From the NCBI RefSeq assembly GCF_965641715.1, contig NZ_OZ282453.1: a DNA stretch of 64,000 nucleotides; one strand, 5' to 3'. The stretch's first letter is position 1. Each line of letters begins with the position of its first letter. Position numbers and translations under genes: made by a program. This document shows positions 1 through 1,959 of this stretch, piece after piece. Below the pieces are notes generated by a model, which had not been told where the DNA came from, did not search any database, and saw only the letters and a list, made by a program, of their open reading frames with translations. Source of the DNA: Escherichia coli. GTDB lineage: Bacteria; Pseudomonadota; Gammaproteobacteria; Enterobacterales; Enterobacteriaceae.

Positions 1-602
1 TAGGCATTGGTTTTGCCGGCGTGGCGCTGGCATTCGGTTTGACCGTTCTGACGATGGCCTTCGCTGTTGGTCATATTTCTGGTGGTCATTTTAACCCAGC
101 GGTCACTATTGGTTTATGGGCTGGCGGACGTTTTCCGGCAAAAGAAGTCGTTGGCTACGTAATTGCCCAGGTTGTCGGCGGTATTGTTGCAGCGGCGCTG
201 CTGTATTTAATTGCCAGTGGTAAAACGGGTTTTGACGCGGCAGCCAGCGGTTTTGCTTCTAACGGTTATGGCGAGCATTCACCAGGCGGTTATTCCATGC
301 TTTCCGCGCTGGTAGTTGAACTGGTATTGAGTGCAGGTTTCCTGTTGGTGATCCACGGCGCAACCGACAAATTCGCTCCGGCAGGTTTTGCGCCGATCGC
401 TATTGGTCTGGCCTTAACCCTGATTCACTTAATCAGTATTCCGGTGACTAACACTTCTGTTAACCCGGCGCGCAGCACCGCAGTTGCCATCTTCCAGGGC
501 GGCTGGGCATTAGAACAACTGTGGTTCTTCTGGGTGGTGCCAATTGTCGGTGGCATTATCGGTGGTCTGATTTACCGGACTCTGCTGGAAAAGCGTAATT
601 AA
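1..602 (+). CDS. aqpZ: aquaporin Z, 5'-truncated at the window edge (frame 3, stop TAA 600-602)
   Basis: Translation [35 protein letters not shown]... contains both MIP-family NPA motifs (NPAVT, NPARS) and matches E. coli AqpZ; the true N-terminus lies upstream of the window. Confidence 0.95.
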
Positions 603-1059
603 TTAGCATTGGCATTTTATCTGCCCTGGTTGTTTTATCTTCGACATTACAAACCGCACGGGTATTGGTGGCGTCAAAATCGCTGAAGCGTTCCCCGAAG
701 GCCGGGGCAGCCCACATGGATGTGGGCTGAGGGTGCGTCTTACAGGACGTTACCTCGCGCCCGACCCGGTAGCCGAAGGGGATAAGCTGAAGGTACCGCG
801 CAGCGGCGATTTTGTTCGCCAGAGCCCGGGGGTGCAGGGGGCGGCGGCGACTGGCCGCCCCCTGCGCGCTCCCTGCGCCAGTGGCTTTATATGGCATTGC
901 ACATGAAAGGAGCGCAACAATGCTAAACACTCATATAGAATTAAAAATCCCCCTCTGATGCATAACATTTCCTTTTAATTGCAACTTTACTCGTCCTTCC
1001 GCTTTCAGTAGTGTGTCATCGCGCATTTCGACTTCTTTCTTTGCAAGGGCTGGGTTTTC

Positions 1060-1959
1060 ATGTTTTCTGGGTTGTTAATCATTCTGGTTCCCCTGATTGT
1101 GGGTTACCTCATTCCGCTTCGCCAACAAGCTGCGTTAAAAGTTATTAATCAGCTATTAAGCTGGATGGTTTACCTTATTCTCTTTTTTATGGGTATCAGT
1201 CTGGCGTTTCTCGATAACCTCGCCAGTAACCTGTTGGCGATTCTGCATTATTCTGCCGTCAGTATTACCGTTATTTTACTGTGTAATATTGCCGCCCTTA
1301 TGTGGCTGGAGCGCGGTCTGCCGTGGCGCAACCACCATCAGCAAGAAAAACTCCCGTCGCGTATTGCGATGGCGCTTGAGTCGCTAAAACTGTGCGGCGT
1401 AGTAGTGATTGGTTTTGCCATTGGCCTGAGTGGACTGGCTTTCTTACAACACGCGACCGAAGCCAGTGAATACACCTTAATTCTGCTACTTTTCCTCGTC
1501 GGTATTCAGTTGCGCAATAATGGCATGACCTTAAAGCAGATTGTCCTTAATCGCCGGGGAATGATTGTCGCCGTGGTGGTGGTTGCCAGTTCATTAATTG
1601 GTGGTTTAATTAACGCCTTTATTCTTGATCTACCCATCAATACCGCGCTGGCAATGGCCTCTGGTTTCGGCTGGTATTCTCTTTCCGGTATTTTATTGAC
1701 CGAATCTTTTGGTCCGGTAATCGGGAGCGCGGCGTTTTTTAATGATCTGGCCCGTGAGCTGATTGCAATTATGTTGATCCCTGGGCTGATTCGCCGCAGC
1801 CGCTCTACCGCACTGGGCTTATGCGGTGCGACGTCGATGGATTTCACCCTGCCCGTTCTTCAACGTACTGGCGGGCTGGATATGGTCCCGGCGGCAATTG
1901 TTCACGGTTTTATTCTTAGCCTGTTAGTGCCGATCCTCATCGCCTTTTTCTCTGCGTAA
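1060..1959 (+). CDS. lysO: lysine exporter LysO (YbjE), 299 aa inner-membrane protein
   Basis: ORF track 1060..1959; hydrophobic multi-helix translation recognised as E. coli YbjE/LysO, same length. Confidence 0.9.
   Translation: MFSGLLIILVPLIVGYLIPLRQQAALKVINQLLSWMVYLILFFMGISLAFLDNLASNLLAILHYSAVSITVILLCNIAALMWLERGLPWRNHHQQEKLPSRIAMALESLKLCGVVVIGFAIGLSGLAFLQHATEASEYTLILLLFLVGIQLRNNGMTLKQIVLNRRGMIVAVVVVASSLIGGLINAFILDLPINTALAMASGFGWYSLSGILLTESFGPVIGSAAFFNDLARELIAIMLIPGLIRRSRSTALGLCGATSMDFTLPVLQRTGGLDMVPAAIVHGFILSLLVPILIAFFSA

Follow-up and report, generated by a model that had tools for sequence, protein, structure and literature searches.

The GC-rich spacer between aqpZ and lysO in an Escherichia coli genome holds the repeat TRIP1a (RRS-lysO) in the orientation opposite to that of K-12

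The 457-bp spacer between aqpZ and lysO (positions 603 to 1,059) in a 64,000-nucleotide stretch of an Escherichia coli genome (RefSeq assembly GCF_965641715.1, contig NZ_OZ282453.1; the whole stretch is here called the window) contains a GC-rich core dense in hairpins, and the questions that it raises are what this core is and what selection maintains in it. A sequence-only reading of the window had offered a structured RNA, a degenerate repeat family, or a cluster of protein-binding sites. On comparison with published sequences the identity can be regarded as settled: positions 646-920 are the known repeat TRIP1a, which is also RRS-lysO, one of the “replication risk sequences” (RRS), and its detection here is a rediscovery. 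The earlier guess of a repeat family or structured RNA was reasonable but missed this identity; the repeat family stands, but it is well conserved and named rather than degenerate. The suggestion of novelty falls, membership in a known repeat family being the outcome that the same reading had itself named as decisive against it.

The name TRIP1 goes back to Rudd (1999), and the survey of Li et al. 2024 (PMC10888264) places TRIP1a at aqpZ-ybjE/lysO, TRIP1b at putP-ycdN(efeU), TRIP1c at yohI/dusC-yohG(mdtQ), and TRIP1d and TRIP1e elsewhere. The published copies are about 266-275 bp long and have G+C contents of 62-65% (PMC10888264), a range that includes the 63.6% of positions 646-920. The element aligns with the copy in the K-12 aqpZ-lysO spacer over 276 nt at 90.6% identity (E 5e-105), on the opposite strand. 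Family, locus, length, G+C, and partner loci are shared with TRIP1a-e and nothing essential differs, the allele of the window being the “reverse direction” TRIP1a class of Li et al. 2024. The copies at lysO and dusC are also the RRS studied by Pham, Cox, Goodman, and co-workers (Pham et al. 2023, 2024), described as lying ~650 kb from dif with a second copy across Ter as partner. The G-quadruplex (G4)-forming 20-mer published for the RRS, GGGGGTGCAGGGGGCGGCGG (PMC11194060), is matched exactly in the window, and the RRS is the same element, from which the window's copy differs in orientation. A search with the spacer, the check for other genomic copies that had been proposed, showed that 5,425 of 5,426 complete E. 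coli genomes hold related copies, which are 90-93% identical and occupy 4 places per genome (median). Other E. coli copies, also 90-93% identical, lie in the yohP-dusC and efeU-putP spacers, the loci named TRIP1c and TRIP1b in PMC10888264; O157:H7 has a yohP-dusC copy as well, and relatives of the element are present in Klebsiella, Citrobacter, and Pseudocitrobacter.

All of the features reported from the letters of the spacer were confirmed, at or close to the positions given. The region at about 640-900 has 64.8% G+C, as compared with 39.5% and 40.3% in the flanks of the spacer and 50.3% in the whole window; the hairpin at 708-729 (CAGCCCACA-TGGA-TGTGGGCTG) is exactly as described; and the repeated motif CCGAAGG occurs at 695 and 773. 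The second of the two hairpins given as examples is present but longer than had been noted, with 12 perfect pairs in arms at 834-845 and 854-865. The element had been judged unlike repetitive extragenic palindromic (REP) sequences, ERIC, and the local bacterial interspersed mosaic element (BIME), and a BLAST comparison of the element with the whole window indeed matches only itself, a result with which an Rfam scan agrees. In the spacer, that scan returned a sub-threshold match to TwoAYGGAY together with noise (MIR1437, snoRNAs, and the tail of CsrC), and no curated family accounts for the element.

The hairpins are kept across genera with many compensatory changes. This was established with an alignment of 44 distinct copies from Escherichia, Klebsiella, Citrobacter, and Pseudocitrobacter, obtained by a degenerate-pattern scan of representative genomes and by BLAST; it should be noted that the collection pattern fixed AAGGCCGGG, AGCC, CATGGATG, GGCT, and AGGG, and that the invariance of those columns is by construction. 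RNAalifold gave 66 pairs in 12 helices for these copies, with 99.4% of the cells able to pair as opposed to 36-45% when partners were slid. Compensatory changes are found at 26 of the 66 pairs (3-6 in the slid controls), the number of double-change cells is 335 (controls, 22-37), and the covariation score is 0.343 (controls, 0.04-0.08). Several pairs show three or four pair types even though the variation is structured by lineage. When compared with dinucleotide shuffles, the RNA folding energy of the + strand is −147 kcal/mol (z −5.5, with none of 200 shuffles as good) and that of the − strand −129.9 kcal/mol (z −4.4); the corresponding DNA foldings give −78 and −71.5 kcal/mol, both with z of about −5. 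On the G-rich strand, wobble is represented by 71 G-U cells versus 10 A-C cells, and selection is therefore taken to act on the single-stranded form of that strand and not on a symmetric duplex or cruciform.

The first of the two GGA-bearing loops, in H6, retains A(N)GGA in the subfamily-2 copies found by BLAST, although CATGGATG was fixed in the collection pattern. In the second, H7/H8, the GGA lies outside the pattern and is invariant in all 44 sequences, but the loop of the window copy is shorter by a 1-nt deletion than that of most family members. By simple count there are four GGA motifs in the 275 nt of the element, two of which are in loops. The closing helix H1 can be continued in the minimum-free-energy structure by pairing of 653-671 with 816-833, an extension predicted in the window copy only; by eye, the Klebsiella and Citrobacter copies have equivalent but different extension pairings. 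In the family model, the arms of H11 are 833-844 and 855-866. Taken together, the comparisons suggest that what selection keeps is a specific fold of the G-rich strand, with 12 helices and two ANGGA loops, and not the G-tract pattern as such; the conserved hairpins speak for selection on a folded single strand, be it RNA or single-stranded DNA. The features of the locus are collected in Table 1.

Table 1. Coordinates of the element, its helices, and the surrounding features in the window
Feature	Position	Strand	Remarks
TRIP1a = RRS-lysO repeat unit	646..920	+	G-rich (“G4”) strand is the window + strand
Published RRS G-quadruplex-forming 20-mer, GGGGGTGCAGGGGGCGGCGG	828..847	+	Exact match to the sequence in PMC11194060
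5′ domain, TwoAYGGAY-like, long closing stem round two adjacent hairpins	663..825	+	RF01731 alignment; helices H1-H9 covary
Closing helix H1	675-682 with 807-814	+	Compensatory changes at 3/8 pairs
Hairpin H6, 9 bp, UGGA loop, ACAUGGAUGU across the loop	708..729	+	Perfect inverted repeat; compensatory changes at 3/9 pairs across genera
Hairpin H7/H8, outer stem 731-737 with 756-762, inner 2-bp stem, loop AGGAC	731..762	+	
Hairpin H9 (CCGC-GCA-GCGG), GNA-type triloop	796..806	+	Compensatory changes at 3/4 pairs
Hairpin H11, 12 bp, 10-nt loop, overlaps the G4 motif	833..866	+	Perfect inverted repeat; compensatory changes at 9/12 pairs
Helix H12, closes the 3′ domain	867-873 with 908-914	+	Compensatory changes at 3/7 pairs
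5′ junction specific to the inverted-TRIP1a allele	603..645	.	Not homologous to the K-12 spacer sequence within the conserved flanks
Allele-specific 3′ junction	921..954	.	Contains a 12-codon mini-ORF (MLNTHIELKIPL), not conserved
lysO upstream (regulatory) region	955..1059	+	97% identity to K-12, same strand; common to both orientation alleles
aqpZ (aquaporin Z), 3′ part	1..602	+	Stop codon 600-602; ORF 21..602; orthologous O157:H7 locus annotated aqpZ
lysO (L-lysine exporter)	1060..1959	+	ORF; annotation of the orthologous locus
Mechanical ORFs 556..930 and 750..968, overlapping; not genes	556..968	−	No Pfam match above cut-off; nothing annotated by RefSeq

The published 20-mer invites the question of whether a G-quadruplex or a hairpin is the conserved structure at this site. 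The second G-run of the G4 motif and its GG-GG tail form the 5′ arm of H11, and in the predicted extension of the closing stem the first G-run is paired with the 5′ leader. Plain regular expressions for G4 are sensitive to the limit set on loop length, and a G4Hunter-type score, which points in the same direction, was used instead. The score is 1.8 for the window, and the medians are 1.84 for Escherichia-type copies, 1.76 for Klebsiella-type copies (minimum 1.0), and 1.08 for Citrobacter-type copies (maximum 1.20). The usual threshold is 1.2-1.5 (as given by Bedrat et al. 2016), and the Citrobacter-type median lies below it. Across the family, therefore, the hairpin is conserved and the propensity to form a G4 is not, a conclusion that is compatible with the polymerase-stop data. 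The G4 at pilE of Neisseria gonorrhoeae is the other bacterial example of programmed gap formation by a folded strand cited by the authors of the RRS studies, but that is a short canonical G-quadruplex tied to pilin antigenic variation, whereas the present element is a multi-helix repeat of 270 nt.

The activities of the element have been described for K-12, in which the lagging strand is templated by the G-rich strand at both RRS loci and the folded single-stranded element stops Pol I, II, III, and IV (PMC11194060). The studies of the RRS report ssGap-seq peaks, polymerase blocks, and orientation dependence (PMC10287960, PMC11194060), to which a preprint by Kusi-Appauh et al. 2026 adds single-molecule observations of gap formation. 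Lagging-strand gaps of up to ~2 kb arise at the RRS, with loading of RecA and SSB, an effect that is most pronounced when the lagging strand is copied from the G-rich strand; in K-12 with an engineered inverted RRS, the RecA/SSB peak is absent in vivo. In vitro, with the C-rich strand as the lagging-strand template (the inverted case), gaps still form in about two-thirds of encounters, and a 12-bp hairpin with all pairs but one G-C, located at the G4 site, would also account for this partial activity of the C-rich strand. Loss of both RRS is tolerated in K-12 only with a large amplification or when inverted or ectopic copies are present, and the supercoiling of the genome shifts when both are deleted or inverted. 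The RRS were proposed to be programmed gap-forming “topological relief valves” that are not entirely dispensable to E. coli.

Most probably, this known and conserved GC-rich element of enterobacterial chromosomes works through one DNA strand that takes up a stable intramolecular fold. According to the K-12 model, unwinding of the duplex by the fork would allow the G-rich strand of the element to fold and block the DNA polymerases, and the block would produce a transient lagging-strand gap of up to ~2 kb onto which RecA and SSB load. The copy in the window is differently placed. The gene order aqpZ-lysO-hcp-hcr is syntenic with K-12, the + strand has a negative GC skew in 13 of 15 intervals of the window, and the element is inverted relative to K-12; because of these three observations, the G-rich strand is assigned to the leading-strand template, and it is the C-rich strand that faces lagging-strand synthesis. 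The RRS-lysO of the window would then be expected to act like the engineered inverted RRS, with fewer or weaker gaps. A proxy based on the skew of the flanks, which is crude and noisy, gives −0.014 for the window and +0.008 for K-12, so that the strand placement of the K-12 RRS is not found here. The proxy has the expected sign at every E. coli locus examined, but it is negative for 34 of 48 copies, including 11 of 14 of the Klebsiella type (orthologous duplicates being counted), and over these 48 copies it lends no support to a rule by which the G-rich strand would generally serve as template of the lagging strand.

The inversion in the window is a natural minority allele. The aqpZ and lysO flanks align with K-12 on the same strand at 95-97% identity, the element alone aligns on the opposite strand, and the junction sequences of the two alleles are unrelated on both sides; downstream of GGAGCGCAAC, the sequence varies among loci and alleles. 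Expressed as marginal counts per locus, with the best place taken for each record, 895 of the 5,426 complete genomes have the spacer type of the window at lysO and 4,028 have the K-12 type. The dusC locus is likewise dimorphic, with two alleles that are 89% identical and have unrelated junctions, the K-12 type in 3,309 genomes and the inverted type in 1,999, including O157:H7, ST131, and ATCC 25922. The inverted allele makes up 16% of natural genomes at lysO and 37% at dusC; both directions at both loci were also found by Li et al. (PMC10888264). Since the alleles differ by ~10% and their junctions are unrelated, the sequences point to old alternative alleles rather than recent flips. The excess of inverted dusC over window-type lysO alleles implies that at least ~1,100 genomes have an inverted dusC allele without a window-type lysO allele, and “clone D i2”, with an inverted dusC allele and a lysO spacer of K-12 length, is one example. 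ST131, ATCC 25922, “clone D i2”, and many others combine a K-12-type lysO copy with an inverted dusC copy, an arrangement in which the two RRS are direct and not inverted repeats; these natural genomes differ from the published generalization that the pair are always inverted repeats.

A perfect 9-nt inverted repeat (TTAGCATTG / CAATGCTAA) at 603-611 and 918-926 brackets the element and was considered as the sign of an invertible switch similar to fimS. This candidate was rejected, as the alleles are ~10% apart with unrelated junctions, and the repeat, of which ~0.4 would be expected by chance, is not kept in the related allele L044; it is probably meaningless. The + strand also has direct repeats, designated D1, at 690-707 and 814-831, 124 nt apart. 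In a spread of 60 genomes examined with a probe made up of the flanks, the spans range from 620 to 794 bp, and the 620-bp class is an internal-deletion derivative joined at these repeats. TRIP1b lacks an internal 125 bp (PMC10888264), and D1 probably marks where the internal deletion of TRIP1b, and that of some aqpZ-lysO alleles, begins and ends. The deletion derivatives L050 (DS566-1) and L007 (TRIP1b) join at CCGGGG. Internal-deletion derivatives recur at different loci, joining at GTTC(C/G)CC..CCGGGG with removal of both ANGGA hairpins, and a different, smaller deletion is present in a K-12-type allele (L014, FCI23).

Several observations weigh against the view that the element serves as a DNA-level replication obstacle, as in K-12. 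Gap formation is documented for the K-12 copies only. The natural frequencies of the inverted alleles given above, although engineered inversion abolished the RecA/SSB peak, are hard to square with a strict requirement that the lagging-strand template be the G-rich strand. The G4Hunter-type median falls between Escherichia- and Citrobacter-type copies while the overlapping hairpin covaries, and the G-quadruplex part of the published model is therefore not the conserved feature. The ANGGA loops, the likeness to an RNA motif, and the wobble asymmetry are what would sooner be expected of a functional RNA than of a generic obstacle to replication. It should also be recognized that the covariation largely separates three genus-level lineages, so that the independent events are fewer than the cell counts suggest.

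These considerations give some weight to the alternative that the selected function is that of an RNA, either a gene or a 3′-untranslated region (UTR) module of ~250 nt and of the TwoAYGGAY class, whose two ANGGA loops bind a dimeric protein such as CsrA, the gaps being a side effect of the great stability of the fold. This is a possible explanation but on balance not the expected one, and RNA and DNA-level roles are not mutually exclusive. The TwoAYGGAY model, RF01731, aligns over its full length with window 663-825 at 24.7 bits (E 0.29), and the gathering score of 43 is not reached; the E. coli-type copy of Pseudocitrobacter scores 31 bits, and its diverged head-to-head neighbor, at 49.2 bits, passes 43. 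The original description of the motif (Weinberg et al. 2010) lists γ-proteobacteria and gives a closing stem of up to 24 bp and two AYGGAY loops. The P1-like stem of the element, made up of the 8 covarying bp of H1 and the predicted 16-bp extension, comes to ~24 bp and shares the feature of a large P1. Loop 1 of the window copy, AUGGAU, matches AYGGAY, but loop 2 is AGGAC in the window, 1 nt short, and A(G/A/C/U)GGA(C/U) in other copies, that is, ANGGAY rather than AYGGAY. In the second Citrobacter/Pseudocitrobacter subfamily, the loops are AGGGAU and AAGGAA, not AUGGAU; the GGA remains invariant in these subfamily-2 copies, as it does outside the collection pattern. The TwoAYGGAY seed includes at least five copies from one genome of Psychromonas, a γ-proteobacterium, with a long P1 and two hairpins whose loops, CAUGGAUG and ACAGGGACGU, make for a parallel layout. 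Element and motif are alike in their long stem and two hairpins with A-Y/N-GGA-Y loops, their multiple copies in a γ-proteobacterium, and their intergenic location with no fixed gene context. They differ in that the 3′ domain of the enterobacterial element (H11 and H12) is outside the Rfam model, and beyond the loops the Psychromonas and Clostridia seeds have weak similarity to the element.

TwoAYGGAY was proposed to be a CsrA binder by Gardner and Eldai (PMC4333381). The element shares GGA in hairpin loops with the CsrB/CsrC/RsmZ RNAs (Rfam clan CL00106); CsrC and CsrB have ~9-22 sites as opposed to its two good ones, it has no evident promoter or terminator, and four GGA motifs in 275 nt do not make a CsrB-like sponge. 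The consensus for CsrA from systematic evolution of ligands by exponential enrichment, as reported by Dubey et al. 2005, is RUACARGGAUGU, to which loop 1 (ACAUGGAUGU) is close. An RNA is also favored by the excess of G-U over A-C cells and by RNA folding, in which the + strand is more stable than the − strand by 17 kcal/mol, but G-T wobbles are tolerated in folded single-stranded DNA too, and the asymmetry does not prove an RNA. In K-12, the conditionally essential function outlives inversion or relocation of the element while gap formation does not; because the former is independent of orientation and position, a trans-acting RNA, or a fold available on either strand, is a live alternative, and a trans-acting product would fit. 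The Citrobacter copies, which face each other head-to-head around a ~100-bp A/T-rich spacer, resemble divergent transcription units. However, consensus scans of the window and of the K-12 spacer detected neither a sigma-70 promoter nor an intrinsic terminator, those of Citrobacter and Pseudocitrobacter gave none that is consistent, and a separate hexamer scan of the 5′ flanks gave weak, unconserved promoter candidates only. In the literature searched, no transcript was found and nothing links TRIP1 or RRS to RNA, Rfam, or CsrA beyond an RNA “double-Y” fold predicted in the TRIP1 paper, from whose text Rfam, CsrA, covariation, and other genera are absent (PMC10888264); the RRS paper takes up neither hairpins nor an RNA product (PMC11194060). 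The more specific proposal that TRIP1/RRS is the enterobacterial branch of the TwoAYGGAY family, conserving a fold that binds CsrA or another dimeric protein over the G-quadruplex, is put forward tentatively, as a conjecture that is rather unlikely to hold.

If the element had no function for the host, it could be a selfish, non-autonomous mobile repeat, either a miniature inverted-repeat transposable element (MITE) or REP-associated, that has spread 3′ of stop codons. Its copy number is variable, E. coli genomes holding it at 1-9 places and one K. pneumoniae chromosome at 13, it occurs in both orientations with unrelated junctions at two loci, and Li et al. concluded that TRIP1 copies are dynamically created and removed (PMC10888264). 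In Klebsiella, moreover, copies regularly have a REP palindrome ~55 nt upstream, and at one locus there are tandem copies 437 bp apart. Nevertheless, this explanation is improbable. There are no conserved terminal inverted repeats or target duplications, the sole 9-nt repeat being the unconserved one described above; no transposase is associated with the element; and a flank-only probe revealed no empty aqpZ-lysO site in a spread of 60 genomes. Purifying and compensatory selection on a complex fold, and chromosomal positions conserved across enterobacteria, argue for a host function, and K-12 is unable to lose both copies cleanly. An origin from phage or plasmid was rejected, as there were no phage matches and the “plasmid” matches are chromosomal fragments or mislabeled chromosomes.

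The relation to REP and BIME sequences is one of general character: these are likewise GC-rich, intergenic, palindromic, and multi-copy, and Klebsiella TRIP1-like copies adjoin a REP, but there is no sequence similarity, and TRIP1 is much longer, with a complex branched fold and only 1-13 copies per genome. The BIME at 17590-17680 of the window is a genuine REP pair (GTAGGTCTGATAAGACGCGCCAGCGTCGCATCAGAC and GCCGGATGCGGCGTGGACGCCTTATCCGGCCTAC) unrelated to TRIP1. Klebsiella-type copies (L008, L009, L019, L025-L030, and L038-L043) have a REP palindrome (GCCGGGTGGCGGCTGCGCCTTACCCGGCC) and a conserved ~55-nt spacer ~50-100 nt upstream, and the repeated unit in Klebsiella is therefore larger than in E. 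coli and may be REP-associated. The tandem copies in K. pneumoniae (L008, 2476-2765 and 2913-3202) are direct repeats, each with its own upstream REP. Citrobacter and Pseudocitrobacter have head-to-head pairs of two subfamilies (L010, 2133-2755; L016, L018, L021-L023, L032, L045, and L047; L048, 5310-5910) that are ~68-70% identical and separated by a ~90-120-bp A/T-rich spacer, forming a very large imperfect palindrome. In Citrobacter youngae (L021, 9705-9813), an Rfam rnk leader (RF01771, 122.5 bits) lies ~50 nt beyond a copy of the second subfamily. Copies of Klebsiella or E. coli type with enterobacterial flanks also occur in metagenome-assembled genomes labeled “Desulfacinum sp.” (L019), “Proteobacteria bacterium” (L020), and “Sporobacter termitidis” (L030), where they most likely represent contamination or mis-binning of enterobacterial contigs.

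A cis-acting role in the neighboring transcripts, as an aqpZ 3′ UTR that replaces a missing terminator or as a lysO leader, is slightly less probable still. In the window, aqpZ, the element, and lysO all point the same way, the terminator hairpin that follows aqpZ in K-12 is missing, and every TRIP1 copy lies 38-96 bp downstream of a stop codon (PMC10888264). However, the element runs antisense to aqpZ and lysO in most strains, K-12 included, copies elsewhere adjoin unrelated genes, no hairpin is followed by a U-tract, and the region upstream of lysO (955-1059) is intact and the same in both alleles. The K-12 allele (L001, 3277-3344) has a canonical intrinsic terminator of aqpZ (AAGGCCTGGCGTAATGTCAGGCCTTTTTTT) directly 3′ of the stop codon that the window allele does not, and a terminator scan detected no terminator-like site between aqpZ and lysO in the latter.

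That the two overlapping minus-strand reading frames, present in the ORF list as reported and open over 124 and 72 codons' worth of amino acids, encode proteins can be dismissed, as had been anticipated when they were attributed to GC richness: none of four ORFs searched has a Pfam family above cut-off, RefSeq annotates nothing here in the records examined, the substitutions are compensatory for base pairs and not synonymous, and ORF 556..930 overlaps the coding end of aqpZ. A small ORF after the element with a Shine-Dalgarno-like sequence (AAAGGAGCGCAAC-ATG) was also rejected because its GGAGCGC is the 3′ arm of the covarying helix H12; the peptides, of 3-12 codons or longer, are unrelated or absent between loci.

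The element has had its name since 1999 and has been under experimental study since 2023, and what is new here is limited to the link with TwoAYGGAY, the evolutionary argument for a hairpin over a G4, and the high frequency of naturally inverted alleles. The comparative data provide a 12-helix model with 26 covarying pairs and tie the element to an orphan Rfam motif. If the element does belong to an enterobacterial branch of the TwoAYGGAY family, the function of the RRS that is independent of orientation and position would come from an RNA, or from a fold available on either strand, with gaps as a by-product, and the frequent inversions at lysO and dusC would be neutral. The window shows an O157:H7-like pathogen lineage whose lysO copy, like the dusC copy of O157:H7, naturally has the orientation that abolishes the RecA/SSB peaks in engineered K-12, and it offers a natural test of the orientation model.

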